From a virus (lineage: Duplodnaviria > Heunggongvirae > Uroviricota > Caudoviricetes): a DNA stretch of 64,000 nucleotides. The translations under genes were made by a program, and so were the position numbers. Positions 41,029 through 60,848 of this stretch are shown here, piece after piece. Every line of letters starts with the position of its first letter. The stretch's first letter is position 1. Under the pieces are notes generated by a model. The model had not been told where the DNA came from, did no database searches, and was given only the letters and a program-made list of their open reading frames with translations. The stretch covers positions 153,730 through 217,729 of IMG/VR virus record IMGVR_UViG_3300012956_000001; one strand, 5' to 3'.

Positions 41029-41208
41029 ATGGTCAAGCCACCTAATGACGCGGAATACGGAACGATTCAAATCCGGCGTCATGTCAAAGATCAAGTCGTA
41101 GATTTTTGTAATCGAAAAGGATTGAAAATCGGTCGATTTGTAGAGAATTTGTTTTTACACGCTGTATCTGGCTCCGGCGGAACATTCAGCGGATCTATGG
41201 AGAAATAA
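41029..41208 (+). CDS. small ribbon-helix-helix (CopG/Arc-like) DNA-binding protein, 59 aa, not in ORF track
   Basis: GTIQIRRHVKDQVVDFCNRKGLKIGRFVENLFL = beta-strand then two helices; GGAGA RBS; stop 1 nt before next ATG. Confidence 0.45.
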   Translation: MVKPPNDAEYGTIQIRRHVKDQVVDFCNRKGLKIGRFVENLFLHAVSGSGGTFSGSMEK

Positions 41209-41209
41209 T

Positions 41210-41473
41210 ATGAAAGTATGGAAATTGTGTATTGCATTAATTCGTGAGTACGGACTATTCGGCGAATTGACAGATTTAAACTTTTCAAAGTATACACCAC
41301 TAGTCAACAAGACTCTATCAGTACCTCTGAAAGATGGCGAAAATTTGAAAGTAGATTACAGAGAGGTAGATAAAATACTTCGAACCACACCAGGCGGAGG
41401 ATTCGTCGCCACTCATAATAATTGGTCAACCAGTACAAAAGATCCCATCAACGACAAGCCGGTTGGATCATAA
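41210..41473 (+). CDS. hypothetical protein
   Basis: 87-aa ORF immediately after RHH-like ORF. Confidence 0.4.
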   Translation: MKVWKLCIALIREYGLFGELTDLNFSKYTPLVNKTLSVPLKDGENLKVDYREVDKILRTTPGGGFVATHNNWSTSTKDPINDKPVGS

Positions 41474-41476
41474 ATT

Positions 41477-42058
41477 ATGACAACATCAGAAATTGTTACT
41501 CCTGCTGTAACTAAGCCACCCAGAGATGGTTGGCTACCCAAGGATCAACGTAAGAAGATACTGTTGTTAAGTGACGATCTCCGCATGCCGAGTGGCGTTG
41601 GCGTTATGTCCAAGGAAATCGTTTCTCAAACATGTCATCGACTAAACTGGGTTCAACTGGGTGCTGCTATCAACCATCCAGAGGTAGGTAAGGGTGTGGA
41701 TGTATCAGAATCGTTGAGTGCTGAAGTGGGCGTTGAAGACACGTACCTTCGTGTGTTTCCCTACAACGGATATGGTGACCCGGGCATTCTTCGTTGGTTG
41801 TTGAAGACGGAAAAGCCCGATGCCATTATGCACTTTACCGATCCTCGCTTCTGGGGATGGCTCTATCAGATGGAACACGAAATTCGTAGAGAAATTCCAA
41901 TTACATATTTGCACGTTTGGGACGATGTACCATTCCCCCGATATAACAGAGATTTCTATAGATCGTGTGATGCCATTTTTAGCATTTCTAAGCAAACACA
42001 TAATATCGTAAAGCAGGTTGTAGGTGTTGAAAATGTTGAATCCATTAAAGTGTATTGA
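41477..42058 (+). CDS. glycosyltransferase family 4 (GT-B), N-terminal half; ends at in-frame TGA
   Basis: KILLLSDDLRMPSGVGV resembles GT4 N-terminal Rossmann; same frame as 42065 ORF. Confidence 0.5.
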   Translation: MTTSEIVTPAVTKPPRDGWLPKDQRKKILLLSDDLRMPSGVGVMSKEIVSQTCHRLNWVQLGAAINHPEVGKGVDVSESLSAEVGVEDTYLRVFPYNGYGDPGILRWLLKTEKPDAIMHFTDPRFWGWLYQMEHEIRREIPITYLHVWDDVPFPRYNRDFYRSCDAIFSISKQTHNIVKQVVGVENVESIKVY

Positions 42059-42064
42059 GGATAT

Positions 42065-42985
42065 ATGCCACAACCAAAGCGTGAACATGATGAATCCAAG
42101 TTAAAAATTGCGTATATCCCACACGGCGTAGATTCAAATCTGTGGAAGCGTCTCACCACAGAAGAAGAACTGAAGGCCGCAGCAGAAGTACGTACCAGAA
42201 TGTTTGGTGCTGATGCTGACAAGGTTAAGTTCGTTGTACTATACAACAACCGAAATATTCGTCGTAAGATGACGGGTGATGTAATTTTGGCATATCAACG
42301 ATTCCTAGAAAAGCTTACACCACAAGAACGTGATGCATGCAGATTGCTATTTCATACGGCTCCTGTGGACGACAATGGTACCGACCTCTTTGCTGTTCTC
42401 CGCGATCTTGCACCAGAGGTTAAGGCCATATTCTCCACAGATCGTGTGTCCACAGAAGATATGGTGAAGATTTACCATAACTGTGATGTGGTCATCAATC
42501 TGGCGTCGAACGAAGGCTTTGGTATAGGAACACTGGAAGCGATCATGTCAGAGAAGATGATCGTTGCTAATGTCACCGGCGGACTTCAAGATCAGATGGG
42601 TTTTGTAGACGAAGATGGTAACTCATTAGACGCTGATGTACATTACAATGCAGAATGGAGCACCAACGCCGATGGCACATATCGTGAACATGGTGAGTGG
42701 GTAGTTCCTGTATTTCCAAACAACCGTGCCTTGATCGGGTCACCTCCAACCCCATACATCTTCGATGATCGTTGTGATTGGCGTGACGCAGCTGATGCAC
42801 TACACGAAGTATACAAGCTTGGACCAGAGGAACGAGCCCGTCGAGGCAAGCTAGGTCGTGAATGGGCTATGAAGCCTTCCGTGGGCATGACGGCCGAAGA
42901 GATGGGCCAACGACTATTAAAGGCATTTGATAATGTCTTTACCACATGGACGCCAAGAAAGTCATTTGGCATTTACAAGGCATAA
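42065..42985 (+). CDS. glycosyltransferase family 4, C-terminal donor-binding half
   Basis: VINLASNEGFGIGTLEAIMSEKMIVANVTGG matches GT4 E-x7-E region. Confidence 0.65.
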   Translation: MPQPKREHDESKLKIAYIPHGVDSNLWKRLTTEEELKAAAEVRTRMFGADADKVKFVVLYNNRNIRRKMTGDVILAYQRFLEKLTPQERDACRLLFHTAPVDDNGTDLFAVLRDLAPEVKAIFSTDRVSTEDMVKIYHNCDVVINLASNEGFGIGTLEAIMSEKMIVANVTGGLQDQMGFVDEDGNSLDADVHYNAEWSTNADGTYREHGEWVVPVFPNNRALIGSPPTPYIFDDRCDWRDAADALHEVYKLGPEERARRGKLGREWAMKPSVGMTAEEMGQRLLKAFDNVFTTWTPRKSFGIYKA

Positions 42986-43280
42986 TATGACAGACAAACT
43001 AACTCCCGTGATGGAAGAGCTTCAACCTGTATTGGATAGCTTTTTGAAGATACACATCAATCAGCCATTGACAGATGAACTGAAAGAAATCCTAGTTCAT
43101 CTATTGGACGCCAAACTCACCGACGCAGGTTACACAGATCGACTGATTCGTGTTACAGAAGCGTTACCTGGCGAACCAACGATGATTATGGTGTTTACCA
43201 GAAATGACAATGATAAGGCAGAGAACAAGATTACAGCTACTACAATTTCTATTAGAGATACTATAGATGGGGACATTTGA
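42927..43280 (+). CDS. hypothetical protein
   Basis: 117-aa ORF. Confidence 0.3.
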   Translation: MIMSLPHGRQESHLAFTRHNMTDKLTPVMEELQPVLDSFLKIHINQPLTDELKEILVHLLDAKLTDAGYTDRLIRVTEALPGEPTMIMVFTRNDNDKAENKITATTISIRDTIDGDI

Positions 43281-44635
43281 TAATGAATAAACCGATGTGT
43301 ATAATTCAAAGCCCACTAGAAACACGTTCTGGCTATGGTGACATGGCCCGAGATATCGCACGTCATATTATTGAGTTGGATCTATATGATGTAAAGCTTG
43401 TTAGTTTGCCGTGGGGTGCCACGCCAATGAATGCACTAGATCCGGTCAAGGATATAGAGCTCATCAAGCGAATTGCACAACCACCAGTTCAGCTGCCCCG
43501 TCAGCCGGAATTGTTTATTCAGATTTCTGTACCAAATGAATTTCAACCAATCGGTAAGTACAATATTGGCATTACGGCTGGTATTGAAACCACACTAGTA
43601 TCGTTACCGTGGATTCAAGGTTGTAACCGAATGAATGCCATTTGGACGATCTCACAACACTCGAAGGAAGTGTTGATGAACACCACCATAGAAGAAAAGG
43701 ATCAATCGGGTCGAGTCACTGCGACAACAAAGTTAAACGTACCAATTGACATTTTACACAATTGTATACATCCAGACATTATCAAGAAGATTACCGTAGA
43801 AGAAATTTCTGATCCGGTACGATCTGTGATGAGCAATGTAAAGGAAAAGTTTGCTTATCTGTTTGTTGGTCATTGGCTCCGTGGTAACATGGGCGAGGAT
43901 CGAAAGAATGTTGGTCTATTAATTAAAATCTTCTGTGAGACATTCAAGACGACTTCCTCCGTGAATCGACCGGCTCTTATACTAAAGACCTCAGGCGCCG
44001 GATTCAGCATCCTCGACCGAGAAGATTGTTTGAACAAGATTCAACAAATTCGTGGTAGTGTGGGTCCGAACTGTCCAAACGTATACTTGCTTCACGGCGA
44101 ACTGTCTGATTCAGAAATGAATCAATTGTACAATCACCCAAAGGTTAAGGCACACGTTAGCTTTACGAAGGGTGAGGGCTTCGGCCGTCCACTTCTAGAG
44201 GCTACCATAAGTCAAAAGCCAGTAATTGCATCTAATTGGTCAGGCCATCTAGACTTCTTAAATGTTGATGAAGCCATATTGGTTCCTGGCGAATTACGGC
44301 CTGTAGAGCCGGGTGCTGTCTGGGAGAACGTCATCATTCCACAGTCGGCATGGTTTAACGTGGACCCCAACAATGCCGCGTCAGCATTGATGCATGTGTT
44401 TAAGCGATATGATCAATTCTTGCTACCAGCCAAGAGGCTGGCCAAGAAGAATCTTGAACAGTTCTCGTACGAGGCCATTAAGAAGCAGACAGCTGATCTA
44501 TTGGCCAAGTATGTACCGGCATTCGTCATGGAAGTACCTGTCAATCTGCCTACCTTAAAGAAGCTTGGCGGCAAGCCCGCACAACCTACCGTCTTACCTA
44601 CACTAAAGAAGATTGTTGCAAATGAAGAAAACTAA
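43277..44635 (+). CDS. glycosyltransferase family 4
   Basis: SFTKGEGFGRPLLEATISQKPVIASNWSG GT4 signature; 452 aa. Confidence 0.7.
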   Translation: MIMNKPMCIIQSPLETRSGYGDMARDIARHIIELDLYDVKLVSLPWGATPMNALDPVKDIELIKRIAQPPVQLPRQPELFIQISVPNEFQPIGKYNIGITAGIETTLVSLPWIQGCNRMNAIWTISQHSKEVLMNTTIEEKDQSGRVTATTKLNVPIDILHNCIHPDIIKKITVEEISDPVRSVMSNVKEKFAYLFVGHWLRGNMGEDRKNVGLLIKIFCETFKTTSSVNRPALILKTSGAGFSILDREDCLNKIQQIRGSVGPNCPNVYLLHGELSDSEMNQLYNHPKVKAHVSFTKGEGFGRPLLEATISQKPVIASNWSGHLDFLNVDEAILVPGELRPVEPGAVWENVIIPQSAWFNVDPNNAASALMHVFKRYDQFLLPAKRLAKKNLEQFSYEAIKKQTADLLAKYVPAFVMEVPVNLPTLKKLGGKPAQPTVLPTLKKIVANEEN

Positions 44636-45041
44636 GCTTCCACTTCAAAGTGCTAAGCTCGAATCTGAAAGTGCCCAACACTTGGCAAGTCACAGATCGT
44701 ATATGTCAAATGCAACAAAGATTACTCCAAAGCAAATCTCGGTGGGCGATGTAATTCAGTTCATGTATGACGGCGAACAGCGAACGGTCTATGTGATGAA
44801 TCCAGATTGGGCAATGAAGTTACACGGACTGTCCATGAAGGCAATTGATCGCAGAACATTGATGGTTGAAGTCGTAGCTAAGTCAGATCTGTATAAGAGT
44901 CCACAAGACTTCTATACACGCGTACTAAGTCAAGGTCCGGTGAGTAAAACAGATTCGTATAGAACGTATGATCTCAGAAAGATGGGCAACATCATGAAGG
45001 TTGAATATCAAATCGATGAACGGGGTCGTGAAGAACTATGA
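44613..45041 (+). CDS. hypothetical protein
   Basis: 142-aa ORF. Confidence 0.3.
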   Translation: MLQMKKTKLPLQSAKLESESAQHLASHRSYMSNATKITPKQISVGDVIQFMYDGEQRTVYVMNPDWAMKLHGLSMKAIDRRTLMVEVVAKSDLYKSPQDFYTRVLSQGPVSKTDSYRTYDLRKMGNIMKVEYQIDERGREEL

Positions 45042-45778
45042 TCAATGTCATATATCGGTTGAGTGACAACGGATACAACAAGCCCAAGTTTCCTAATGCA
45101 ACAAAACTGCACTGCTTTAAAAACATGTTGTCTCAATTTCATCCAAATTGGGTACATGTCTTTGTAGACGAAACTAATTTGTTGCCGGAAACTAGACAGG
45201 CAATGATCGATGAGAACAATCATTGGTGGGCAGAATACGGAGATCAAATTGGAGCCGGATTTGGACACTTTGAATTCTACACGGCTGGTAGTTCAGCAGC
45301 CAGTTGGCGACATGTTTTTGACTTTGCACTAAATAAGTTTCGACCGGAAGAATATGTGTACTTTGTGGAAGATGATTATCTACATCTGGAAGGTGCACGG
45401 TCAATATTAACACAGGGATTACAAATTGCAGATTACGTTAGTCTGTACGATCATAATGACAAGTACATACCAGCATCCCAAGGTGGCAATCCGTTCATTG
45501 ATGAAGATGCAGGCGAAGTAACCAAGGTATTTCGTACCAAAGATGTACACTGGAAGCTTACCAATAGTACCACGATGACGTTTGCTACTACGGTTGCTCA
45601 ACTACGTGAAGATGAGGCCACTTGGCGTGAATTTACACAAGGATCACATCCAAACGATTTCTCTTGTTTTTTGAAACTACGTGAACTTGGTCGATCATTG
45701 ATTACACCCATCCCCGGCTATTCCACACACTGCGAACCACGCTGGGCAAGTCCTGGCACTGATTGGGATGTCGTATGA
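45038..45778 (+). CDS. putative GT-A-fold glycosyltransferase
   Basis: YVYFVEDDYLH DxD-like motif; context. Confidence 0.35.
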   Translation: MINVIYRLSDNGYNKPKFPNATKLHCFKNMLSQFHPNWVHVFVDETNLLPETRQAMIDENNHWWAEYGDQIGAGFGHFEFYTAGSSAASWRHVFDFALNKFRPEEYVYFVEDDYLHLEGARSILTQGLQIADYVSLYDHNDKYIPASQGGNPFIDEDAGEVTKVFRTKDVHWKLTNSTTMTFATTVAQLREDEATWREFTQGSHPNDFSCFLKLRELGRSLITPIPGYSTHCEPRWASPGTDWDVV

Positions 45779-46629
45779 AAGATTTGTTAATTGGTGCAGC
45801 TGATCTATATGATTGGTCCAAGATAAAGGTATGGGCCACTTCAGCACGCCAAAGTGGCTTTACGGGTGATATTGTATTGTTGACGTATCGCGTTGCACCG
45901 GATGTAGTTGAACATGCCAGTAAGCTAGGCGTCGATGTATATCAAATTGAGCACAATTCCTTTGGTGGTCCGATTACACATAATGATAAGGGGCGAGATA
46001 CCCAGGCACATCAGTTGCGATTCTTTCATATGTGGCAATTCTTATCCACTGATGACAAATATCAAGAATATGATCGTATTATAACTACCGATGTTCGGGA
46101 TGTGTGGTTTCAAAAAAATCCGTCAGATTGGTTAGATAAACATCGTGATATATTATGTAAGTCGCCACTGGTAGCATCATCAGAGGGCATCAAATATAAA
46201 GATGAACCGTGGGGCGCTGATAACATGATTAACGGATTTGGGCCTTTAGTATGGAATGTTGCAAAAGAATGGACCATATACAACGTTGGAGTGGTGGCTG
46301 GACAATCATTTCGTATGATGGGGTTGTTCTTAACGTTGTATCACATGACTACTGGTAGATACATCCCATCAGATCAATCTGCATATAACATATTAACCAA
46401 TCAAACCATGGCTACTCAATTTATGAACACTATGCACATTGATGATTGGGCATGCCAATGTGGTACGGTTCTAGATCCACAAAAATCTCATTTGGAATTG
46501 TCTGACCAACGACCAATCGTATTACCAGATGGTCATGTCATAAATCCTAGTGGTGAAGAATACCACATTGTACATCAGTATGATCGAGTTCCAAAAATAC
46601 TTTCCTTAGTGGAGTCGTTATATGCCTGA
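45775..46629 (+). CDS. hypothetical protein, possible nucleotide-sugar transferase (DxD: TTDVRDVWF)
   Basis: ATGA overlap at 45775; context in glycosylation island. Confidence 0.3.
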   Translation: MKDLLIGAADLYDWSKIKVWATSARQSGFTGDIVLLTYRVAPDVVEHASKLGVDVYQIEHNSFGGPITHNDKGRDTQAHQLRFFHMWQFLSTDDKYQEYDRIITTDVRDVWFQKNPSDWLDKHRDILCKSPLVASSEGIKYKDEPWGADNMINGFGPLVWNVAKEWTIYNVGVVAGQSFRMMGLFLTLYHMTTGRYIPSDQSAYNILTNQTMATQFMNTMHIDDWACQCGTVLDPQKSHLELSDQRPIVLPDGHVINPSGEEYHIVHQYDRVPKILSLVESLYA

Positions 46630-46744
46630 TATACCACCCAAGCCTAAGCCACCAGAACTAGAAGATCTCCCCGATCACATCAGTCCGTGGTTCGCCCTAT
46701 TATTTGTAATTCCCTTTGTCATCCTCATCATTCGGTCTCTATGA
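46622..46744 (+). CDS. 40-aa Pro-rich peptide with C-terminal transmembrane anchor, not in ORF track
   Basis: MPDIPPKPKPPELEDLPDHISPWFALLFVIPFVILIIRSL; start overlaps upstream stop, stop overlaps downstream ATG (cTATGAt). Confidence 0.35.
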   Translation: MPDIPPKPKPPELEDLPDHISPWFALLFVIPFVILIIRSL

Positions 46745-48210
46745 TATCCATCGTTGTATGTTATCGTAATCGTGAAGAACATCTCAAAAAGTTTGTACCG
46801 CATATGCGACAATTCTTTAGAGATACACCACACGAAATCATCATTGTTGAACAGGCCGACAATCTTCGGTTCCGCCGTGGCAATCTATTGAACGAAGGCG
46901 TTCGTATTGCCAAGGGCGATGTGATTGCTTTGCATGACGTAGATTACCTACCAACGGAAGGTACATCATATTGGCAGGATGGAACCGATGTACACCGACC
47001 AGCTGGCCGTGTAGAATTTATTTTGATGGACGGGTCGCCCCGACCAGAAGAAGATATTCCATCTGGCTATCGTCACTTTAAAGATAAGGTAGATGATGAT
47101 TTCTTTGGCGCTGTGACGGTGTTTAGCAAAGAAGCAATTTGGAAAATTAACGGATTTAACCCACTATATGACGGATGGGGATTAGAAGATGCAGATCTCA
47201 GACAAAGGATTGCTGCCAGCGGATTGCACGTGTCCAGCGGACACAACCTGTTCCAGGCCTTGCCGCATGCGGACTCATTCCCAGGCCTCAGCGACGAGGG
47301 GTTCCAGCATAACCAAAGGATATTTTCCCAGGCAGATGAATTTCGACTACTTGGCATTAACACAACCTTCCCAACCGTCATGGCTCGATCAGATAAGGCT
47401 AAGGAATGGGGCGTGGATCAATGGATTGAAGCAACGAATTTTACGGCGGTTTCGCCGGAATTAACAGCGTACATGACCGTAGACAACGTATCTGAGATGT
47501 ACGAAGATACACCTGATGTGCATACATTAATCTGGAAGAACTTCAAGACGCTTGTCAACGCAACGCCACATTTAAAAGAACATCGTGATTGGGTTGTTCA
47601 AAATAACTGGGGCTATGGCAATCGAGCATTTCACTGGATGTGGAATATTCTAATTCAGCAGGCACCACAAAACTTCAAGTTCTTGGAGATTGGTGTATTC
47701 AAGGGTCAAACGATTAGCTTGATTTCCATGTTAAATGGAATTCACCGGAAGAACGGTACAGTATACGGCGTCACTCCATTGAGTAAGTCTGGTGACAAGT
47801 ATGCAACACACCCAGATATTAATTACGAAGAATGTATACAACACATCTATGGTCAATTTAAGCTTGATGCATCCGATCTCAATATCATTGAAGGATACAG
47901 TAATGACCAAGCAATTATTGACATATCCACACAAGAAGGCCCGTATGATTTTGTATATGTGGATGGCTGTCATGACTATGATGTAGTCGTTTCCGACCTA
48001 GAGAAATATGGCGATATGCTCCGGGTTGGTGGATACTTAGTAGTAGACGATAGTAGTAATAATCTACAGATTCCAGATGGACTAATTCGCATGAATTGGC
48101 GTGGACTGCCAGATGTTACGAAGGCCGTTGAGGATGTACTAGAAACAAATTCCAAATTCACTCATCGGTTTGCCGTCGGGCACAATCGAATCTTTCAGAG
48201 GATTGCATGA
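46741..48210 (+). CDS. bifunctional glycosyltransferase (GT-A, beta-4-galactosyltransferase-like) / class I SAM methyltransferase
   Basis: N-term SIVVCYRNREEHL...IIIVEQ...FRRGNLLNEG...HDVDYLP (GT-A DxD); C-term LEIGVFKGQT and DFVYVDGCHDYD (Methyltransf_24-like). Confidence 0.6.
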   Translation: MISIVVCYRNREEHLKKFVPHMRQFFRDTPHEIIIVEQADNLRFRRGNLLNEGVRIAKGDVIALHDVDYLPTEGTSYWQDGTDVHRPAGRVEFILMDGSPRPEEDIPSGYRHFKDKVDDDFFGAVTVFSKEAIWKINGFNPLYDGWGLEDADLRQRIAASGLHVSSGHNLFQALPHADSFPGLSDEGFQHNQRIFSQADEFRLLGINTTFPTVMARSDKAKEWGVDQWIEATNFTAVSPELTAYMTVDNVSEMYEDTPDVHTLIWKNFKTLVNATPHLKEHRDWVVQNNWGYGNRAFHWMWNILIQQAPQNFKFLEIGVFKGQTISLISMLNGIHRKNGTVYGVTPLSKSGDKYATHPDINYEECIQHIYGQFKLDASDLNIIEGYSNDQAIIDISTQEGPYDFVYVDGCHDYDVVVSDLEKYGDMLRVGGYLVVDDSSNNLQIPDGLIRMNWRGLPDVTKAVEDVLETNSKFTHRFAVGHNRIFQRIA

Positions 48211-53224: not shown

Positions 53225-53952
53225 TTAAGTTGGTCGATACAAAGGACAAATACACGAATGATCAGGCGGCCAAGCAACAATTGGCTGATCTGTTTGGTGA
53301 CACCACAAAGTATACTCTAGAGTTTGATCCATTTTGGAATGAGATGGTACCTCAAGCGATCAAGATGCACAATCGTCATGGTATGGGTGAATATGCCGGA
53401 TCGGGCTGTGTGGACTATAACGAGGCTAAGGCACTATACATTTTTACTCGGCTATTGCGTCCAAAGATTGTTGTAGAACTCGGGTATGCGGGAGGCATAT
53501 CCACCAGTTTTATTGCACGTGGATTAGAAATGAATGGTGCCGGCCAAGTTCACACCGTTGATCTATCGCCAGAATACTGGGATGTATGTCCCACGTTTCA
53601 ACAGTATCGTAAACAAGAAACGATTGTACAGTATCATGCTACTGATGCTATTCAATTCTTGAAAGACACCGACGTAGCCCCGATCCTAACGTTTAGTGAT
53701 GCCACTCACGAAGAAGAACCCACTCGACAAATTGCTGAATTACTAAAAAAGAAGTGGCCTCATGCCGTACACTTATATCACGAATGGGGTATGAGTAATA
53801 AAAGTGCTGCAGAAGAACGATCCTATGTCAGCATGCAAAATTTAATTGGTACACAATATGAACGTGATGCCTTTGAGAGTGTATTTGGCGATCAATATAG
53901 ACACGGTGGATTGTATGGGTCGTGTGGCCTTGGAATTGTGATGCCTCTATGA
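53221..53952 (+). CDS. class I SAM-dependent methyltransferase (Methyltransf_24/TylF-CmcI-like)
   Basis: IVVELGYAGGIST glycine-rich SAM loop, acidic residue downstream (HTVDLS). Confidence 0.55.
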   Translation: MIKLVDTKDKYTNDQAAKQQLADLFGDTTKYTLEFDPFWNEMVPQAIKMHNRHGMGEYAGSGCVDYNEAKALYIFTRLLRPKIVVELGYAGGISTSFIARGLEMNGAGQVHTVDLSPEYWDVCPTFQQYRKQETIVQYHATDAIQFLKDTDVAPILTFSDATHEEEPTRQIAELLKKKWPHAVHLYHEWGMSNKSAAEERSYVSMQNLIGTQYERDAFESVFGDQYRHGGLYGSCGLGIVMPL

Positions 53953-54314
53953 TAATAACAAGCATTGATCCGACCGAGATAAAATCATACGCAAAGTCGT
54001 ATATAAGTGAGGTGGCGGCCACGTATTTTGAAATTCGAAAGTCGTGGGGCCCTGGCTGGAAAGTGTTCGAATCGCCCGAGGACATAGAACGTATCATATA
54101 TTATCTTATAGATAGATGTTGTGAAACACCGACTGGCAATACCATTGACACTACCGGCATAAAAGTACGTGTCCAACGAGCAATATTTACAGAAGACGCC
54201 CGTGTACACTATGACTCGAAATATCCAAAACATAGTCGTGCAGCAAACGGTAAGGGACTACAAGATTATACCAGTTTGGATATAACCTTCATTCTATCGG
54301 ATCGTACTAAGTAA
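53949..54314 (+). CDS. hypothetical protein
   Basis: ATGA overlap at 53949. Confidence 0.3.
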   Translation: MIITSIDPTEIKSYAKSYISEVAATYFEIRKSWGPGWKVFESPEDIERIIYYLIDRCCETPTGNTIDTTGIKVRVQRAIFTEDARVHYDSKYPKHSRAANGKGLQDYTSLDITFILSDRTK

Positions 54315-54354
54315 AATGTATACATCTTAACACATCTAGATTTTGTACCTCAAT

Positions 54355-54403: not shown

Positions 54404-54415
54404 AGTTTTTATACA

Positions 54416-55249
54416 ATGAAGTTCACACGATTTGTTCCTCTTATTGCTCTTTTGACCCTCGCGGCCTGTGAGCGGGTCGATCAGACCGAATATTGTGTAA
54501 AGACACAATACGGCAACGTCACCGATAAGGGCTTGGAGCCCGGATTGACCAATACGGCGTCTCCCGGTGTCTCGCTGACCTGTTTCTCCCTAACGGATCA
54601 AAACTTCCCTGAGAAGACGAGCGATGAAGATCCGGGCACATTGACCCTCGAAGTCCAGACGGGCGGCGGCGAACAGCCACTAACCATTGCGGTCGAAGTC
54701 AGCGCAGTATATGCATTTGATCGTGCCTCGGTCTATGATGTATTCGTTGCCAAGCGTACCGAAGATGCTGCTGAAGTAGAAGTCTTTAACAGCATTCAGG
54801 AAGGTACTCGTGCGGCCTTCGGATCGTGGACGGTTACGGAAATCTTCTCCGATCAGCGTGCCACATTGTCGGACAGCCTTCGGGCCCACATTCAACGAAA
54901 GCTTGGCAATCGTGCGATTATGAAGAACGTGTTCGTGAAGCGAATTTCCTTGCCTAAGGCCATTGAAGATGCACGAATTGCATCGGCACAACAGGCACAG
55001 ATTTTGGCGAAGGCACAACAGCAATTTGTAATTGACAGTCAGAATGCCCGTGGTGTTCTTATGAAGGCCGAGGCCGACGCCAAGGCAAACGAACTTCGTG
55101 GTCAGTCATACCAGTCAAATCCCAAGTTGCTTGACCTTGAAATCGCCAAGGCGTGGTCCGATGGATTGAAGGGTGCATGTAATGGCGCATCAACTTGTAT
55201 CATCGGTGGCCAGGCACTTGATCTCCTTCCTCTCCGAAATCGTCAATAA
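54416..55249 (+). CDS. SPFH/band-7 (stomatin-prohibitin-HflK/C-like) lipoprotein
   Basis: signal peptide with lipobox LTLAAC; Ala/Gln-rich coiled coil ...AKAQQQFVIDSQNARGVLMKAEADAKANELRGQ typical of SPFH C-terminus; GC clearly above window average. Confidence 0.7.
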   Translation: MKFTRFVPLIALLTLAACERVDQTEYCVKTQYGNVTDKGLEPGLTNTASPGVSLTCFSLTDQNFPEKTSDEDPGTLTLEVQTGGGEQPLTIAVEVSAVYAFDRASVYDVFVAKRTEDAAEVEVFNSIQEGTRAAFGSWTVTEIFSDQRATLSDSLRAHIQRKLGNRAIMKNVFVKRISLPKAIEDARIASAQQAQILAKAQQQFVIDSQNARGVLMKAEADAKANELRGQSYQSNPKLLDLEIAKAWSDGLKGACNGASTCIIGGQALDLLPLRNRQ

Positions 55250-55261
55250 TTAACGTGGAAT

Positions 55262-55284
55262 GGGGTGAGCTAATAACTCACCCC
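55262..55284 (+). terminator. hairpin GGGGTGAG-N7-CTCACCCC
   Basis: 8-bp G/C-rich stem after SPFH stop. Confidence 0.5.
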
Positions 55285-55292
55285 AACTCATA

Positions 55293-55601
55293 ATGTATAT
55301 ACTTAATGGATTTGGCGTATGGGTTGTTTTGTTGTTTGTAATATTGATGGTACTCAAGTTTGGCGGTCATGTAGTCAATGATAAAGAAAACTGGGCAGTC
55401 GGCGCAGCCGATTTGGCAGCTGAGTTTAGAGAGGCACCAATTCACACCATCGGCATTTTTGGAATTGTTAGTGTTATCGTTATTGGTGCATGGCCGATCA
55501 TTCTTACCGTAATGGCATTGGCCTTCGCGGCATTTCTCATTGGCGGGGTTCCATACATTGTATTTACCCGTACTATATCAACGCCTAAGCAGGAGAAGTA
55601 A
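55293..55601 (+). CDS. small integral membrane protein (3 predicted TM segments)
   Basis: hydrophobic stretches VWVVLLFVILMVL, IGIFGIVSVIVIGAWPIILTVMALAFAAFLIGG. Confidence 0.4.
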   Translation: MYILNGFGVWVVLLFVILMVLKFGGHVVNDKENWAVGAADLAAEFREAPIHTIGIFGIVSVIVIGAWPIILTVMALAFAAFLIGGVPYIVFTRTISTPKQEK

Positions 55602-55603
55602 TC

Positions 55604-55810
55604 ATGGTTATTTTCGCTGAACTATTTTTGTTTGCTATGGTTCTTTTTGGCGTCTTTCGGTTCTTGAAGAATGAAATTGAAATCAAGGTTCTTCGAGCAA
55701 AGAATGCCAAGCTTGAAGAGGATGTCATTGAACTTCAAAAGATTCTTCTTCAAGATGAAGTTGACGAATTTGGCAAGGCGCCAAGGGGCAAGCAAATTCT
55801 TCATGGATGA
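55604..55810 (+). CDS. single-pass membrane protein with coiled-coil tail
   Basis: MVIFAELFLFAMVLFGVF then KNEIEIKVLRAKNAKLEEDVIELQK. Confidence 0.4.
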   Translation: MVIFAELFLFAMVLFGVFRFLKNEIEIKVLRAKNAKLEEDVIELQKILLQDEVDEFGKAPRGKQILHG

Positions 55811-55813
55811 CAT

Positions 55814-56353
55814 ATGACACAACAGAACTATGATGAATTGTACGCTCAATTAACATCACACCCGACTGTAGGTGAGACAGGGCCGCCGCATGCAGAATTT
55901 CTTATGCATGCGGCGAGACAGTCAAATGCAAAAGTCATTGTTGAAATTGGGTTCAATCGAGGCAGTTCAGCTTTATCGTTACTTATGTCGAGTGATGACT
56001 GCGTGGTGTATTCGGTGGATATTCGTACACCAGAAGAAGTTCGGGCATCGTGTGATTTCTTGACTGCACAATTTCCAAATCGATTTCACTACATCCACGG
56101 TAACAGTAGAGAATTATTGTCGTTGTTGCCCATTAGTAATGCTGATCTTGTATTCATTGACGGGGATCATTCGTATGATGGTGTGCGAAATGACGTTGAA
56201 CAATCCTTACAACTAAATCCTCGATGTATCGTATTTGATGATTATTATCACGGGTCACACCGACATGATATTCAACGGGTCATTGACGAATTTCAGTTAG
56301 TTGTAGCAGAAACAAGTGATATTGGATGTGGGCAGGCGTTTGTCAATCGATAG
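55814..56353 (+). CDS. class I SAM-dependent O-methyltransferase-like protein
   Basis: VIVEIGFNRGSS glycine loop, DLVFIDGDHSYD motif. Confidence 0.6.
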   Translation: MTQQNYDELYAQLTSHPTVGETGPPHAEFLMHAARQSNAKVIVEIGFNRGSSALSLLMSSDDCVVYSVDIRTPEEVRASCDFLTAQFPNRFHYIHGNSRELLSLLPISNADLVFIDGDHSYDGVRNDVEQSLQLNPRCIVFDDYYHGSHRHDIQRVIDEFQLVVAETSDIGCGQAFVNR

Positions 56354-56422
56354 TCCATTTCTACTATTTTATGATACTACTTATTAGTGGTGTTACTGGT
56401 CATAGTTTAGTGGAGAAACATC

Positions 56423-57169
56423 GTGGGACAAAAGCCAGCAGAAATAATATATGGAATATGTGAATTGTGTAGGGTCCAATTTGCATATCCAGACAAGACA
56501 ATAAATAAGAACCGAAGATTTTGTTCCGGTTTTTGTGCTAAATCACACAATGGTTTATCTAATAAAGGACGAGAGAGAACCAATGAATGGAAGTTGTGGG
56601 CAAAACAATATTTTTTAGGTGAGAATAATCCGTTCTATGGCAAGACACACACATCAGAATCAATTTCACGGATGTCACAAGCAAGTAAAGGCCGTCCATG
56701 TAAACCGGAAGTGAAACAATTTTTCTCCGATTTGTATTCCGGTGAGGGCAATCCATTTTATGGAAAGACACATTCCGAGCAGACTCTCTTAAAAATAAAA
56801 CAGCATGCTAACTCGGAGCAGGGTCGTAGAATTAGAAGAAACAACGCCATAAAGAAAAATCAATTCACACCAAATTATAGTAAAGATGCGTGTGAGTTGT
56901 TTGATGAAATCAATCGTGAACTTAGTTGGAATGGACAACATGCAGAAAACGGTGGCGAGTTTTTTATCAAAGAGTTAGGCTACTGGGTGGATTACTACGA
57001 GCCAAATCTTAATATTGTGATTGAATACGATGATAAATCGCATAACTTGAAGTCAAAGAAAGAACGAGATGCAAGAAGACAACAAGAAATTGAACAACAT
57101 CTCGGTTGTAAATTTTATAGAATCCCATTTAATAGGAAGGCAGGATGGAAAAAAATTATACAGTCCTAG
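56423..57169 (+). CDS. homing endonuclease-like protein: Zn finger + two NUMOD3 repeats + C-terminal Vsr/DUF559-like PD-(D/E)xK domain
   Basis: NNPFYGKTHTSESISRMS and GNPFYGKTHSEQTLLKIK (NUMOD3); C-term NIVIEYDDKSHN...ERDARRQQEIEQHLGCKFYRIP; GTG start after GGAGAAA. Confidence 0.6.
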   Translation: MGQKPAEIIYGICELCRVQFAYPDKTINKNRRFCSGFCAKSHNGLSNKGRERTNEWKLWAKQYFLGENNPFYGKTHTSESISRMSQASKGRPCKPEVKQFFSDLYSGEGNPFYGKTHSEQTLLKIKQHANSEQGRRIRRNNAIKKNQFTPNYSKDACELFDEINRELSWNGQHAENGGEFFIKELGYWVDYYEPNLNIVIEYDDKSHNLKSKKERDARRQQEIEQHLGCKFYRIPFNRKAGWKKIIQS

Positions 57170-58182
57170 TGACTGGCGCAGCAGGGCTATTGGGTTCTAG
57201 ATTAGCTGAATATTTGATAGCTACCAAACAAAATGTAACGGTGGTTGGCGTAGACGATCTATCCGGTGGATTTGTTGAGAACATACATCCATCGGTAATA
57301 TTTCATCAACACGATGTTGGTGATCCAGAAAGCCTAGATAAGTTGTTTGCCACACATAAATTTGATGTCGTCTATCACTTTGCTGCGTATGCTGCAGAAG
57401 CATTAAGTCCTTTTATTCGACAATTCAATTATACCAACAACTTACTCAATACGGCCAATGTCGTCAACTTGTGTATCAAGTATGATGTTGGCCGTTTGGT
57501 GTTTACATCAAGCATGGCGGTCTATGGAACAGGCATCCCACCATTTGACGAGTCACAACCACGTAATCCAGTTGATCCATACGGTGTCGCCAAGGCGGCC
57601 TGTGAAATGGATATTGAGATTGCCGGTGAACAACACGGACTAGATTACTGTATCATCCGACCACACAACGTATACGGTCGTAATCAAAATCTGTGGGACT
57701 CGTATCGTAATGTGTTGGGCATTTGGATGTACAAGCATATGAACGGTGATCCACTTACCATATTTGGTGATGGTGAACAGCTCAGAGCATTTAGCGAGAT
57801 GAACGATGTGCTTGAACCGTTCTGGGTTGCAGGCACAGACGAGAAGGCATCTAGACAGATCATCAATCTCGGCGGTATCCATGAAACAAGCATTAAGGAT
57901 GCGGCAAATATTCTGACTGATGTAATGGGTGGTGGCACGATCATTCATCTTCCACCACGACACGAAGTAAAGTACGCATATCCAACGTGGAAGAAGTCTG
58001 TTGAATTGTTGGGCTTTGAGCATAAGACTTCATTACATCATGGATTGTCTAATATGTGGTCATGGGCACAACAACAGCCAAAGAGAGAACGATTTATCTG
58101 GTCGAAGTATGAACTGGATAAAGGCATGTATGATTATTGGAAACCAGAAGCTCTGAAAGACGGGCATTGGAGAACATCATGA
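57145..58182 (+). CDS. NAD-dependent nucleotide-sugar epimerase/dehydratase (extended SDR)
   Basis: VLVTGAAGLLGS (GxxGxxG), YGVAKAACE (YxxxK). Confidence 0.8.
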   Translation: MEKNYTVLVTGAAGLLGSRLAEYLIATKQNVTVVGVDDLSGGFVENIHPSVIFHQHDVGDPESLDKLFATHKFDVVYHFAAYAAEALSPFIRQFNYTNNLLNTANVVNLCIKYDVGRLVFTSSMAVYGTGIPPFDESQPRNPVDPYGVAKAACEMDIEIAGEQHGLDYCIIRPHNVYGRNQNLWDSYRNVLGIWMYKHMNGDPLTIFGDGEQLRAFSEMNDVLEPFWVAGTDEKASRQIINLGGIHETSIKDAANILTDVMGGGTIIHLPPRHEVKYAYPTWKKSVELLGFEHKTSLHHGLSNMWSWAQQQPKRERFIWSKYELDKGMYDYWKPEALKDGHWRTS

Positions 58183-58445
58183 AATTTTGTGACCCATATA
58201 ATTTGCCTATAGAAATTGGTGACGGCGTTATAAACATGGATTTATTTCCTACAAGATATCCAATTTCAGGCGGATTTCCATACTCTAGAGAAGATATAGC
58301 GACTGTCATAGAAGTTGGACCGGCCTCGGGATCTAGCGACGGGCATCGTTACGCACAGGTAACCATACAATGGCCACCTAGATATGGCAGCTCCGGCACA
58401 TACACATACCAAGCAGCAAGTTTGTTACTCGTATCTAAACCATAG
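58179..58445 (+). CDS. hypothetical protein
   Basis: ATGA overlap at 58179-58182. Confidence 0.3.
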   Translation: MKFCDPYNLPIEIGDGVINMDLFPTRYPISGGFPYSREDIATVIEVGPASGSSDGHRYAQVTIQWPPRYGSSGTYTYQAASLLLVSKP

Positions 58446-58454
58446 GAGGTTGGT

Positions 58455-58739
58455 GTGACGAATCACGAAACCAATCCTTTGCTAGAATTAGCAAAGGATG
58501 AAGCTATACAGAAAAAAAACAAAGTAGTTTTCGATGGAGTCTTTGGTAGAAAATACCCAGGCTGTTCTGTCGATTTTGAGAAAAACGTTATTACCTGTGA
58601 AGAAGATGGTGTCGTAACGTCGATGTCATTCGCGGTGGCAATTCAATTAATGGTATTGCACAATATGAACATGGATGATATTGTGGAAAATCTCCGTAGT
58701 CTATTTGAAATTCTAGACGTTGATGGACAATTAATATAA
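58455..58739 (+). CDS. hypothetical protein
   Basis: GTG start after GGAGG. Confidence 0.3.
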   Translation: MTNHETNPLLELAKDEAIQKKNKVVFDGVFGRKYPGCSVDFEKNVITCEEDGVVTSMSFAVAIQLMVLHNMNMDDIVENLRSLFEILDVDGQLI

Positions 58740-59539
58740 TGTCAAATGTTACATTGATTATTCCGTCGTATCGTAATCCCAAGTATCTTGATCTCTGCCT
58801 TAAGTCAGCAGTCGAAAATCGAGTTGATCCAAAGAACGGAATCACTGTCATACTAGATGGCTATGTCGAAGAAAATCGTGAAGTGATTGCTTTATATGAA
58901 GATGCTGTAGATTTTATTGAACTAGAAGAAAATCAAGGCATGCAAACGGCACTCAACTACGGCGTAATGCAAGCCACTACACCATATGTCTTTATTATCA
59001 ATGACGACAATGTAATGCCTAAGGAATGGGATACTCGTCTCATGAAAGATGTGTTGGTAATGGGCGATAAGTTTGCACTTACTGTCGATCAGATAGAACC
59101 CACAGGACCAGGCATGTTCAAGTTTCCGGTTCATGATTTGGGGCAAGATGTAGATTCATTCGACTATAAAGCTTGGTTAGAATATGAATATTCTACAAAA
59201 CAAATGATGGTCGCCGGTGATGGCCGAATCTTTCCATTTGTTATGAAGAAGAAGTATTATCTGGCGTGCGGTGGGTTTGATACGTTTTATGATAGTCCAA
59301 ATATCTGTGATTGGGATTTCTTTTTGAAATTGGAATTGCTTGGGTTCAGCTTCCCACGCACCAGATCATTACGACTCTATCATTTTGGATCGGTGGCTAC
59401 AAAGAAAAATGCAGAGTCTACTCAGTTCACAGAACGTGAACGACATGCATATGAAATGTATAATTGGAAGTGGGGCGCACTACCATACAACGGTAATCAA
59501 AATACAAAAATTCATCCGAGCGGATTCAGAGGGTTTTAA
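58739..59539 (+). CDS. glycosyltransferase family 2 (GT-A)
   Basis: LIIPSYRNPKYLDLCLKS and FIINDDN (DxD). Confidence 0.6.
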   Translation: MSNVTLIIPSYRNPKYLDLCLKSAVENRVDPKNGITVILDGYVEENREVIALYEDAVDFIELEENQGMQTALNYGVMQATTPYVFIINDDNVMPKEWDTRLMKDVLVMGDKFALTVDQIEPTGPGMFKFPVHDLGQDVDSFDYKAWLEYEYSTKQMMVAGDGRIFPFVMKKKYYLACGGFDTFYDSPNICDWDFFLKLELLGFSFPRTRSLRLYHFGSVATKKNAESTQFTERERHAYEMYNWKWGALPYNGNQNTKIHPSGFRGF

Positions 59540-59541
59540 TC

Positions 59542-60087
59542 ATGATTCAGGTTATTGGTATTTCTGGCAAGGCCGGAAGCGGCAAAGATTACATCAGTCA
59601 TCAGTATCTTGCCCCATTGGGATTCAAACAATGGAGCCTGGCTTGGCACTTTAAGGTGTGGATTGTGGGCAAGGGGCTGGCAACACACGAAGAAACATTT
59701 GTGACCAAGCCGCCACATATTCGGAACGAACTTCAACTTGAGGGAACCGAACGTGGTCGAATGGTATATGGCGACGATGTATGGTGTGAGACCGCCCGTG
59801 AATGGTTTACGGTGTTACATGAACAATGGGGGATTGATAAGTTTGTGATCCCCGATGTTAGATTTCCAAATGAAGTAAAATTCATAAGAAATATGGGCGG
59901 CAAAGTTATCAGATTACATGCACCCAATAGAATTTTAAACAGTTCGTTGACTGAATCTGCCCGCCAGCACATTAGCGAAACTGCTCTGGATCATTTCATA
60001 CCAGCACAATTCGATGGCATCATAAACAACGATCCCGAATATGCACACACAGTACAAGATCAATTAATGCATATATTGGCACAATAA
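59542..60087 (+). CDS. P-loop kinase resembling T4 gp1 deoxynucleoside-monophosphate kinase
   Basis: MIQVIGISGKAGSGKDYIS vs T4 gp1 MKLIFLSGVKRSGKDTTADF. Confidence 0.55.
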   Translation: MIQVIGISGKAGSGKDYISHQYLAPLGFKQWSLAWHFKVWIVGKGLATHEETFVTKPPHIRNELQLEGTERGRMVYGDDVWCETAREWFTVLHEQWGIDKFVIPDVRFPNEVKFIRNMGGKVIRLHAPNRILNSSLTESARQHISETALDHFIPAQFDGIINNDPEYAHTVQDQLMHILAQ

Positions 60088-60104
60088 TACAACTAAAGGT
60101 TATC

Positions 60105-60848
60105 ATGAAAAAGCTAAATTTGATATTCGATCTTGACGATACACTGGTGGATTGTAGTAAGTTCTATAAGCAGCAACAGGAAGCATTTGCACAATATCAG
60201 CACGAACGCACGGGCTTGTCTGTTGACCTAATTAAAAAGGTTCGTGAAGACATCGACGTTAACTTTATGTCTACACCAGATGGGTTTAGCCGTGCCAGAT
60301 TTCCACGATCATTTGCCGCTACATCAATGACCATTGATATGATGTTGGGCAATTCTATGGATGAAGAAGCTGCGAGGCAAAGTTTTGAACTGGGTGATCT
60401 AGTATTTGACGCGGAGTATCCACTATGCCCCGGTGTAGATGTCATGTTATCAGCATACAAAGATGCCGGTCATAATTTGTTTCTTGTCACAAAGGGCGAT
60501 TTTGCCGTACAAACCAAAAAGATAGAAATGAACGGCTTATCGAACTGGTTTTCTACTGACAAAATCTATATTGTTGCACAAAAGTCACACGTAGAATATG
60601 GTCGAGTGTTGCATGATCACCACTTAGACAAATCAGATACTTGTATTATTGGTGATTCAATACGTGATGACATGATTAGTGCTGAACACCTTGCAGTTTC
60701 TTGTGTATGGGTACACGGTAGGCACAATACCGGCTGGTCATATGAAAATGCAAAATATAAACCAATATTCAGTATAGAACATGCTGCAGATCTTGTAACT
60801 TTAATTGACCCAATTACTGGAAAGTTGTTGGCTGATCCCCTCGTGTGA
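60105..60848 (+). CDS. HAD-superfamily hydrolase (phosphatase)
   Basis: IFDLDDTLVD motif I, VTKGD motif III-like, IGDSIRDD motif IV. Confidence 0.6.
   Translation: MKKLNLIFDLDDTLVDCSKFYKQQQEAFAQYQHERTGLSVDLIKKVREDIDVNFMSTPDGFSRARFPRSFAATSMTIDMMLGNSMDEEAARQSFELGDLVFDAEYPLCPGVDVMLSAYKDAGHNLFLVTKGDFAVQTKKIEMNGLSNWFSTDKIYIVAQKSHVEYGRVLHDHHLDKSDTCIIGDSIRDDMISAEHLAVSCVWVHGRHNTGWSYENAKYKPIFSIEHAADLVTLIDPITGKLLADPLV

Follow-up and report, generated by a model that had tools for sequence, protein, structure and literature searches.

A glycan-synthesis island of about 20 kb in a large T4-like aquatic phage, its sugar-activation cassette and its candidate acceptors

What does a tailed phage make with some twenty kilobases of sugar-modifying genes, and on what acceptor would it place the product? 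These questions are raised by a stretch of 64,000 nucleotides of viral DNA (Caudoviricetes; IMG/VR record IMGVR_UViG_3300012956_000001, positions 153,730 to 217,729), here called the window, which contains an island of 30 open reading frames (ORFs), all on the + strand and many with overlapping stop and start codons. The island spans ~20 kb, about 9% of the genome, and holds at least 17 sugar genes. An initial annotation had described it as a complete pathway that builds and transfers a methylated glycan, with DNA as the most interesting target and virion protein or the host surface as alternatives.

The pathway is supported by the annotations reported here, which show it to be largely self-contained and richer than had been described, with eight glycosyltransferase (GT) units. 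DNA is disfavoured as its target by the search for ThyA, TET and methyltransferase genes, by 51 related viral loci, by the virion DNA of a phage that shares part of the island, by restriction-site avoidance, and by the bacterial context of the sugar-activation genes, while virion glycoproteins and the host surface both stay live options. Glycosylation of virion protein is the leading reading, at a probability that we put at about 0.4.

Extent and gene content of the island

The first ORF starts at 41030 and the last, encoding a HAD hydrolase, ends at 60848; a transmembrane (TM) protein gene begins at 60893. The initial annotation had placed more than 25 co-directional genes between a terminator at 40949-40980 and this last gene, and independent assemblies agree. 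Contigs from ENA, Logan and JGI all show the identical gene order, so that misassembly can be dismissed. Domains were called with Pfam and NCBIfam on the ORFs, folds were assigned from AlphaFold2 (AF2) models with Foldseek, and the PDB was searched as well. The features, with lengths in amino acids (aa), are as follows.

40949-40980, + strand: intrinsic terminator-like hairpin (40949-40972; 10-bp stem, 6 GC pairs) and T-run, TGTGTTTTTC, closing the upstream unit
40994-41004, + strand: promoter-like motif ACTATTTATAG at the island head, kept there in the relatives L108, L022 and L111
41030-41473, + strand: two small ORFs, 59 and 87 aa, no family
41477-42058, + strand: N-terminal half of GT4a (Glyco_transf_4, Pfam), its own ORF
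42065-42985, + strand: C-terminal half of GT4a (Glycos_transf_1, Pfam 5e-9; best PDB match chlorovirus B736L, 1.5e-6)
42990-43280, + strand: small ORF, 96 aa, no family
43283-44635, + strand: GT4b (Glycos_transf_1, Pfam)
44622-45041, + strand: 139-aa ORF, no family, kept in relatives
45038-45778, + strand: GT-A (GT2-like) glycosyltransferase, 246 aa (~2000 homologues, some scoring PF00535; invariant EDD)
45775-46629, + strand: retaining-type GT-A (GT6/GT8-like; AF2 pLDDT 96.2; invariant TDVRDVxFQxNP)
46741-48210, + strand: fusion of GT7N/7C (beta4GalT7-like) with a CmcI/Methyltransf_24 sugar O-methyltransferase (Pfam; PDB 3lw6, 7.6e-18)
48207-48848, + strand: RibB, 3,4-dihydroxy-2-butanone-4-phosphate (DHBP) synthase (Pfam 6.6e-72; TIGR00506 210 bits, cutoff 177; DRENEGD and GHTEA motifs)
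48848-49792, + strand: APH/choline-kinase-fold sugar(-phosphate) kinase, homologue of the AfhE C-terminal domain
49789-50556, + strand: sugar-1-phosphate nucleotidyltransferase (NTase), MurU/GlmU/LicC-like (NTP_transferase, weak, barely over cutoff)
50553-50927, + strand: small HAD phosphatase, EcbF/BcbF capsule phosphatase family (2.8e-21), homologue of AfhF
50914-51771, + strand: short transaldolase/FSA-family (TAL_FSA) class I aldolase (4.6e-12; PDB 3r8r, 3s0c; MKIP lysine motif)
51768-53224, + strand: two tandem DUF7796 paralogs, GT-A fold (AF2 pLDDT 92; GT6/GT8 fold matches)
53221-53952, + strand: Methyltransf_24 S-adenosylmethionine (SAM) methyltransferase (8.9e-9)
53949-54314, + strand: 121-aa ORF, no family
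54416-55810, + strand: SPFH/Band-7 lipoprotein and two small membrane proteins, not sugar enzymes
55814-56353, + strand: Methyltransf_24/O-methyltransferase (5.1e-14)
56423-57169, + strand: NUMOD3 homing endonuclease, a mobile insertion with a Vsr/PD-(D/E)XK-like C-terminus
57145-58182, + strand: SDR nucleoside diphosphate (NDP)-sugar 4-epimerase-like protein (7.8e-46; PDB 4zrm, UDP-hexose 4-epimerase, 3.5e-45)
58179-58739, + strand: two small ORFs, 88 and 94 aa, no family
58739-59539, + strand: soluble GT2 glycosyltransferase (2.5e-14), without a TM segment
59542-60087, + strand: T4 gp1-like deoxynucleoside monophosphate (dNMP) kinase, DNMK (PF21448, 33.1 bits, over cutoff)
60105-60848, + strand: HAD-IA (HAD_2) hydrolase, pyrimidine 5'-nucleotidase-like (YjjG/PynA-type matches, under cutoffs)

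In sum, the island encodes eight GT units and three O-methyltransferase domains, besides a single 4-epimerase-like SDR and a sugar-activation cassette of five genes. The GT units are the two-ORF GT4a, GT4b, the GT2, the fusion of GT7 with a methyltransferase, and four proteins of GT-A fold, of which two belong to DUF7796. The Foldseek matches of the retaining-type GT-A, all at probability 1.0, include alpha-1,3-galactosyltransferase (alpha3GalT), glycogenin, the GT domain of LH3 and Mimivirus R699. A PDB profile search with the family of the 246-aa GT-A returned zero matches, as did an IMG/VR search with the GT7-methyltransferase fusion, and PDB sequence searches with the kinase, NTase and dNMP kinase were uninformative. 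The dNMP kinase, 59% identical to its counterpart in the relative L109 and missing from most cassette loci, is part of the conserved right flank and probably serves nucleotide metabolism, not the making of the glycan. Endonucleases related to the NUMOD3 protein sit at other positions in L022 and L109, and a Band-7 protein also lies downstream of the island in L022.

Domain and fold evidence bears out nearly all of the GT, methyltransferase and nucleotidyltransferase calls of the initial annotation, among them the single GT2, the two to three GT-A-like enzymes (those at 45038 and 45775), the GT-methyltransferase fusion, the SDR, RibB, the transaldolase-family enzyme, the dNMP kinase, the LicC-like NTase, and the APH-family kinase, which has no Pfam match but is identified by an invariant HGDxCFSN...DPRG motif, APH-annotated homologues and its match to AfhE. 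Other calls need amendment. Three GT4 enzymes reduce to two, since the first two ORFs are the halves of one GT-B enzyme; two stand-alone methyltransferases were found where three had been listed; and both HAD proteins are indeed HADs, although the last is nearer the pyrimidine 5'-nucleotidase type than a sugar phosphatase. The tandem paralogs are paralogs as stated, but their family, given as unknown, is DUF7796. The block of sugar genes is real yet broken by the SPFH lipoprotein, its two small membrane companions, the homing endonuclease and the small ORFs.

GT4a is parted by an in-frame TGA, after which a Shine-Dalgarno sequence and an ATG open the second half. The gene is split in L022, where a TAA occupies the same junction, and in Microcystis phage Mel-JY01, and is fused in L018 and in Flavobacterium phage immuto. 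A pseudogene, readthrough or recoding was considered for the TGA and rejected, given the TAA of L022, the downstream halves with a Shine-Dalgarno sequence and ATG of their own, and the lack of other in-frame stops. GT4a looks like a natural two-subunit GT-B enzyme.

The island appears to be transcribed as a single unit from the ACTAYTTATAG promoter at its head, of a class shared with gp32 and the ribonucleotide reductase (RNR). Seven copies of ACTAYTTAT(AG) occur in the window (at 12456, 12987, 17839, 20376, 35299, 40994 and 56376), all on the + strand and intergenic, 25-71 nt upstream of start codons, where 1.1 are expected; a count of seven was reached in 0 of 100 shuffles. The motif precedes gp32, RNR, the island head and the homing endonuclease, and the succession of terminator and motif at the island head is kept in relatives. 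It likely marks a phage-specific promoter class. The T4 late-promoter consensus, TATAAATA, shows no enrichment in the window and zero coding-strand occurrences, and sigma-70 and terminator scans stayed at chance level, the head terminator excepted.

A RibB-linked sugar-activation cassette

Which sugar the island would activate is addressed by the five genes from RibB to the transaldolase-like aldolase. A related pathway has been described in phages RB69, DLP3 and HY126, whose DNA bears poly-arabinosylated 5-hydroxycytosine (PMC13326640). There, UDP-arabinofuranose (UDP-Araf) is made from ribulose-5-phosphate in three steps by a SIS isomerase (API), AfhE and AfhF: AfhE joins an N-terminal nucleotidyltransferase to a C-terminal APH-like kinase that forms a 1,5-bisphosphate, and AfhF is a small HAD that takes off the 5-phosphate (PMC13326640). 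When all window ORFs were compared with the HY126 proteins by phmmer, the AfhE C-terminal domain matched the kinase (2.2e-14) and AfhF matched the small HAD (4.9e-10). The HY126 isomerase, ThyA-like 5hodCMP synthase, DNA glycosyltransferase and Tmk-like kinase found no match in any window ORF, and the isomerase found none in any of 80 viral cassette loci either.

The island triad of kinase, NTase and HAD, as these matches indicate, is of the AfhE/AfhF type split into three genes, with RibB and a TalC/FSA-type aldolase, which retains its Schiff-base lysine motif, replacing the isomerase. Both systems set an APH-fold kinase, a small HAD and a MurU/LicC-like NTase side by side in a T4-like replication module, draw on ribulose-5-phosphate and have GT-B transferases nearby. 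They differ in that kinase and NTase are separate genes here and one fusion there, that RibB and the TAL/FSA-like aldolase stand in place of API, that the ThyA-type 5hodCMP synthase, Tmk-like kinase and a DNA arabinosyltransferase homologue were not found in the window, that this genome avoids restriction sites, and that many more GTs and O-methyltransferases are present here. By homology, the triad would convert a sugar phosphate to a 1,omega-bisphosphate, then to a sugar-1-phosphate and finally to an NDP-sugar, while RibB and the aldolase would feed it from ribulose-5-phosphate and the pentose-phosphate pool.

The kinase belongs to a large family, some members of which carry an APH domain. 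With tblastn it matches Synechococcus phage S-SKS1 at 37.5% identity, where RibB again adjoins it, and RB69-like coliphages weakly over its full length. Identities between the S-SKS1 and island cassettes run from 27 to 51%, and the S-SKS1 gene annotated as RibB (SWZG_00042, L023 12574-14001) is an NTase-RibB fusion, with the NTase at residues 1-248 and RibB at 254-446. The neighbourhoods of 80 kinase-bearing viral loci from IMG/VR were surveyed within 10 kb, together with 80 sampled bacterial loci. RibB and a TAL-like gene accompany the kinase in 51-52 of the 80 viral loci, and the complete five-gene cassette is present on at least 51 IMG/VR contigs. The NTase lies next to the other two triad genes in 54 of the 80 viral loci and in 69 of the 80 bacterial ones. 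A DUF7796-type GT-A lies alongside the cassette in 37-41 viral loci, and this co-occurrence makes it the best candidate user of the cassette's sugar.

RibB is canonical by score and motifs, and TalC-type transaldolases are common auxiliary metabolic genes (AMGs) of cyanophages, S-SKS1 having a separate annotated transaldolase. One could therefore regard RibB and TAL as plain AMGs for riboflavin or pentose-phosphate flux, or suppose that the island makes some other soluble product or acts on another soluble acceptor, such as an oligosaccharide or glycoside, a small molecule, RNA or a host protein, for example in anti-defence. The cassette product matches no simple known sugar, and counter-defence-like genes (NAMPT/NUDIX, DruA-like) occur elsewhere in the window. 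We nonetheless hold this family of explanations to be unlikely. The strict RibB-kinase-NTase-HAD-TAL synteny (51 of 80 viral loci) and the S-SKS1 fusion tie RibB to the sugar pathway and argue for one pathway; the window holds no other riboflavin gene and, an Rfam scan having returned no family, no flavin mononucleotide (FMN) riboswitch; and a set of eight GTs implies that the product is a polymer or oligomer carried by a defined acceptor.

The triad itself is not confined to viruses. In bacteria the kinase-HAD-NTase combination gave 364 matches and was present in 63-69 of the 80 sampled loci, across many phyla, at 25-54% identity. These bacterial kinase-HAD-NTase(-GT2) cassettes, whose HAD is of the EcbF/BcbF phosphatase family, have the same three genes, are without RibB and TAL, and are followed by a membrane-anchored GT2, whereas the phage GTs are all soluble. 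Their neighbours (Wzx-like flippase, ABC-exporter and epimerase genes) together with that GT2 mark these as surface-polysaccharide loci. The triad is therefore a general module from sugar phosphate to NDP-sugar, so AfhE/AfhF homology cannot tell which acceptor is used and by itself should not be taken as evidence of DNA glycosylation. Literature searches returned nothing usable on RibB-linked phage glycan pathways, on S-SKS1 glycosyltransferases or as primary papers on AfhE/AfhF. The cassette is a previously undescribed, widespread viral module.

A conserved GT4 pair and the acceptor of the glycan

At the head of the island, GT4a shares 38-43% identity with its syntenic counterparts in Mel-JY01 and immuto, GT4b is 46% identical to the genes at the same position in both, and the order PD-(D/E)XK nuclease, GT4a, GT4b is kept at 38-55% identity in phages of Microcystis and Flavobacterium. 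After this anchor Mel-JY01 has a GT-A, a methyltransferase and a GT2, and immuto has WecE aminotransferases, an acetyltransferase, an epimerase and other GTs. In more closely related uncultured phages the middle of the island is re-assorted: some have gained GDP-fucose-type genes, a GT11 or a RuBisCO-like protein, and one that lacks RibB and TAL still retains the right-hand SDR-GT2-dNMP kinase-HAD block; re-assorted content was seen in L018, L022, L109, Mel-JY01 and immuto. That this pair is kept in phages of hosts from different phyla, while the genes for outer sugars vary, suggests that the acceptor is a conserved one on the phage side and that each lineage decorates it differently.

Two side observations belong to these related islands. 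RuBisCO-large-family (RuBisCO-like) proteins are encoded at 14070-15299 in L018-L021 and at 1361-2581 in L109, which points to more unusual pentulose-phosphate chemistry, and a nucleoside 2-deoxyribosyltransferase-like gene (PF15891) lies at 12683-13138 within the island of L109.

If DNA were the acceptor, as the initial annotation had proposed, GT-B and GT-A enzymes would put the NDP-sugars on a hydroxylated or hydroxymethylated pyrimidine, with the gp1-like dNMP kinase acting on the modified nucleotide. In favour of this, the island's sugar kinase and small HAD are homologous to the AfhE and AfhF that make UDP-Araf for 5-hydroxycytosine arabinosylation, and RB69-type DNA arabinosyltransferases are GT4-like GT-B enzymes (PMC13326640). 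In addition, genes for a dNMP kinase and a nucleotidase-like HAD adjoin the island, its place is within the replication module, it has a promoter motif in common with gp32 and RNR, and DNA glycans of two or three sugars (di- and trisaccharides) exist. Even so, we judge this reading highly improbable, on the following grounds.

No ThyA-type hydroxylase or hydroxymethylase, TET/JBP protein or cytosine methyltransferase was found in the ~84 kb of genome examined, that is, the 64-kb window and 10 kb on each side (Pfam throughout, phmmer in the window). The initial annotation had likewise seen no pyrimidine hydroxymethylase in the window; the dCMP/dUMP hydroxymethylase or 5-hmdU/5-hmdC pathway that it proposed to look for elsewhere in the genome was not found in the 10-kb flanks. 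The sole thymidylate-synthase-type gene in this span is the flavin-dependent ThyX (L025, 19936-20619), ~11 kb to the right of the island and outside the window, followed by a GIY-YIG endonuclease. A ThyA homologue lies within 10 kb in 0 of the 51 RibB/TAL-type viral loci, in contrast to the RB69 type, in which ThyA is adjacent; HY126 has its ThyA-like gene in the same cluster as AfhE/AfhF, and the only two ThyA-like matches among the viral loci both fall in loci without RibB and TAL. The HY126 DNA glycosyltransferase, API and Tmk-like genes are without homologues in the window, and the first of these gives no detectable match even though the island contains GT4/GT-B enzymes. Of the T-even set for glucosylated hydroxymethylcytosine (dCMP hydroxymethylase gp42, dCTPase gp56, alpha/beta-glucosyltransferase and gp1 dNMP kinase), only a gp1-like kinase turned up, together with a dUTPase, and the hydroxymethylase and a T4-type GT were not found; the cytosine methyltransferase and TET/JBP components of the methyltransferase/5mYOX(TET)/GT set for cytosine hypermodification (bioRxiv 10.1101/2023.12.21.572611) were not found by Pfam in window and flanks.

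Two further lines bear on the DNA itself. Liquid chromatography with UV detection and tandem mass spectrometry (LC-UV-MS/MS) of immuto virion DNA gave canonical dA, dC and dT, with fdPreQ1 in place of dG and no glycosylated nucleosides reported (PMC10516641), although this phage carries the syntenic GT4a/GT4b pair and a sugar island. In the window, 6-bp palindromes have a mean log2 observed/expected (O/E) of -0.90, and 45% of them are depleted as against 5% of non-palindromes (Mann-Whitney p = 4.6e-14). The absence is selective for GC-containing palindromes: seven 6-bp sites are missing in all, including (observed/expected) CGATCG (0/19.7), GGATCC (0/12.0), GTCGAC (0/10.2), TCCGGA (0/8.4) and GACGTC (0/5), and ACCGGT occurs once against 10.7 expected; GATC itself is not avoided, and the island is depleted to the same degree as the rest of the window. 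In the control, 18.9 kb of arabinosylated HY126, no such avoidance is seen (mean log2 O/E -0.15). CGATCG-specific systems are common in cyanobacteria, and the absences are probably a footprint of host restriction enzymes. Such avoidance argues, indirectly, against a bulky glycan on every C or other base, which should free the genome from this selection, and is compatible with a sparse or motif-specific modification. Finally, no known DNA glycan would call for as many as eight GTs and three O-methyltransferase domains. The DNA-hypermodification reading is thus disfavoured, and the acceptor is probably not DNA.

TM segments are absent from every GT, methyltransferase and sugar enzyme, the only multi-TM proteins in the island being ORFs of 68-108 aa, and Pfam and TM scans of the island found no polyprenyl-phosphate priming transferase, flippase, polymerase, ligase or exporter, which sets it apart from bacterial Wzx/Wzy- or ABC-dependent loci. 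Assembly would therefore be cytoplasmic or take place at the inner membrane face, on an acceptor that already exists. We picture the island as a phage-encoded, wholly cytoplasmic glycan assembly line. The 4-epimerase-like SDR would diversify a common UDP-hexose, and a UDP-sugar dehydrogenase may be encoded elsewhere in the window; the eight soluble GT units would build a hetero-oligosaccharide, GT4a and GT4b as the anchoring pair and the GT-A enzymes thereafter; and the three CmcI/Methyltransf_24 domains would O-methylate the product. In the least secure step, the acceptor would most likely be a phage structural protein, so that progeny virions would carry a lineage-specific methylated glycan coat, as those of chloroviruses, mimiviruses and some mycobacteriophages carry glycans made by their own enzymes.

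Virion protein is favoured as acceptor because ~9% of the genome is a big outlay for a transient effect, and because chloroviruses provide a precise precedent: the capsid protein of PBCV-1 is glycosylated by soluble, early-expressed viral GTs, with a GT-GT-methyltransferase fusion, A064R, and an extra O-methyltransferase, A061L (PMC9614988). The island resembles the systems of giant viruses (PBCV-1 A064R/A061L, Mimivirus) and mycobacteriophages in its soluble viral GTs, its GT-O-methyltransferase fusion with stand-alone O-methyltransferases, its viral NDP-sugar synthesis and, presumably, its early expression. The GT-A folds are close to Mimivirus R699, and the best PDB match of GT4a is chlorovirus B736L; these relationships, however, are at the level of fold. 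The B736L match was rejected as support for protein glycosylation, as in HHpred B736L matches T4 and RB69 DNA glycosyltransferases equally well.

The glycan may instead be destined for the host envelope. Here host lipid-linked intermediates or the lipopolysaccharide (LPS) core would be modified by the soluble GTs from the inner side of the membrane, and host flippase and ligase would export the methylated product; the altered surface of the infected cell would block superinfection or keep progeny from adsorbing to debris. Much of what speaks for this reading weighs against a virion acceptor. The closest non-viral homologues of the triad, at 30-37% identity, lie in bacterial surface-polysaccharide loci near TM-anchored GT2, Wzx-like and ABC-exporter genes, and the small HAD belongs to a capsule phosphatase family. 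GT4 enzymes (the immuto copy is annotated RfaG-like) and GT8-like folds are also typical of LPS-core synthesis, the island itself includes an SPFH lipoprotein and small membrane proteins, and the conservation of the GT4 pair across phyla could be explained equally well by universal lipid-linked acceptors. Also against a virion acceptor, none of the structural genes adjoins the island, which lies in the replication and nucleotide-metabolism module under the promoter class of gp32 and RNR; the GT4 pair is the sole part common to this island and that of immuto; and the chemistry leaves a gap, in that DHBP, a C4 1-deoxy-ketose phosphate, is at odds with the 1,omega-bisphosphate logic of AfhE/F unless the aldolase extends or replaces it. 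The case for a virion glycoprotein is one of homology and context rather than of direct glycoprotein observation.

Remodelling of the envelope is also the standing interpretation of the sugar clusters of P-SSM2 and the pelagimyophages (PMC1079782, PMC7029224), and the hypervariable content among relatives recalls O-antigen loci. Its function, though, has never been demonstrated in any such phage cluster. The island has none of the genes for priming, flipping, polymerization, ligation or export, the GT4 pair is common to phages whose hosts belong to different phyla with different envelopes, and for a lytic-type T4-like phage the genomic cost is large for a transient surface change. We accordingly rate the envelope as a possible but secondary destination, and retain virion protein as the preferred one.

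Setting in the phage and wider meaning

By its genes, the source is a large, deep-branching, T4-like aquatic phage. The window encodes a T4-type baseplate protein, gp32, UvsX, RNase H and a gp41-type helicase, along with RNR, dUTPase, a family-B DNA polymerase, ligase, the clamp loader gp44/62, and nicotinamide phosphoribosyltransferase (NAMPT) with a NUDIX protein; tail sheath and tail-fibre genes lie in the left flank, outside the window. The DNA polymerase is 39.6% identical to that of its nearest cultured relative, Mel-JY01, and 50-65% identical to those of uncultured IMG/VR contigs. Identical proteins occur on a JGI contig of 217,729 bp and on a pair of ENA contigs (153,931 and 63,957 bp), which indicates a genome of ~218 kb. 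Compared by megablast with 50,697 phage records, the island had no match.

Among other genes of the window, a UDP-glucose/GDP-mannose dehydrogenase-like gene (11603-12442, + strand), with an intact GxGxxG and without the C-terminal UDP-binding domain, is located well away from the island, with a DNA_pol_A-like fragment on one side and gp32 on the other, and is a possible supplier of a uronic-acid donor. The fragment is a 452-aa ORF (10248-11606) that matches DNA_pol_A only in part and comes on top of the genome's family-B replicative polymerase. At 28649-31322 the NUDIX protein adjoins NAMPT as an NAD+ salvage pair, and at 32810-33982 lies a homologue of the Druantia defence protein DruA (PF14236, E 8.5e-26), which could be a decoy or counter-defence gene. 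To the right of the island, 61251-63201 encodes a secreted Ala/Pro-rich protein of 149 aa and a signal-peptide S8 subtilase, at 47.5% G+C against ~43%.

Large sugar islands in aquatic T4-like phages are already known, and this one is not unprecedented. The initial annotation was right that it goes far beyond the T-even phages, but P-SSM2 has as many as 24 'LPS' genes, and pelagimyophages, too, have many of them (PMC1079782, PMC7029224). Like those clusters and that of S-SKS1, the island brings together many genes for epimerases, transferases and synthases in an aquatic T4-like phage, and is hypervariable among relatives; unlike the cyanophage clusters it sits in the replication module and not beside tail-fibre genes, and its GT4a/GT4b pair, GT7-methyltransferase fusion and DUF7796 GT-A pair were not found in cultured cyanophages. 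What is new is the widespread viral RibB-kinase-NTase-HAD-TAL module, with its DUF7796 GT-A, kin to the UDP-arabinose pathway and with different entry chemistry; the conserved two-subunit GT4a/GT4b anchor common to culturable phages; and the evidence that such islands are probably not DNA-modification systems. A more speculative proposal, which we consider doubtful though worth stating, is that cassette and DUF7796 enzymes together are a viral route from ribulose-5-phosphate via RibB to a new NDP-sugar or a deoxy-tetrulose/tetritol unit, building a methylated virion glycan coat in an abundant aquatic T4-like clade as the phage counterpart of giant-virus glycocalyces.

Sugar blocks of aquatic T4-like phages have been labelled 'LPS genes' for twenty years without test, and this locus gives concrete handles on them. 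Mel-JY01 and immuto, which share the GT4 pair, are in culture, so that knock-outs and glycoproteomics of virions come within reach, and the compact five-gene cassette can be reconstituted in vitro. By joining RibB chemistry and a TalC-like aldolase to an AfhE/AfhF-like triad, the cassette predicts a new nucleotide sugar, and it makes the phage UDP-arabinose module one branch of a far wider family in bacteria and viruses. If the virions of these phages are indeed glycosylated, this would bear on phage-host recognition, on grazing, on immune and lectin interactions, and on the reading of metagenomic 'AMGs'.

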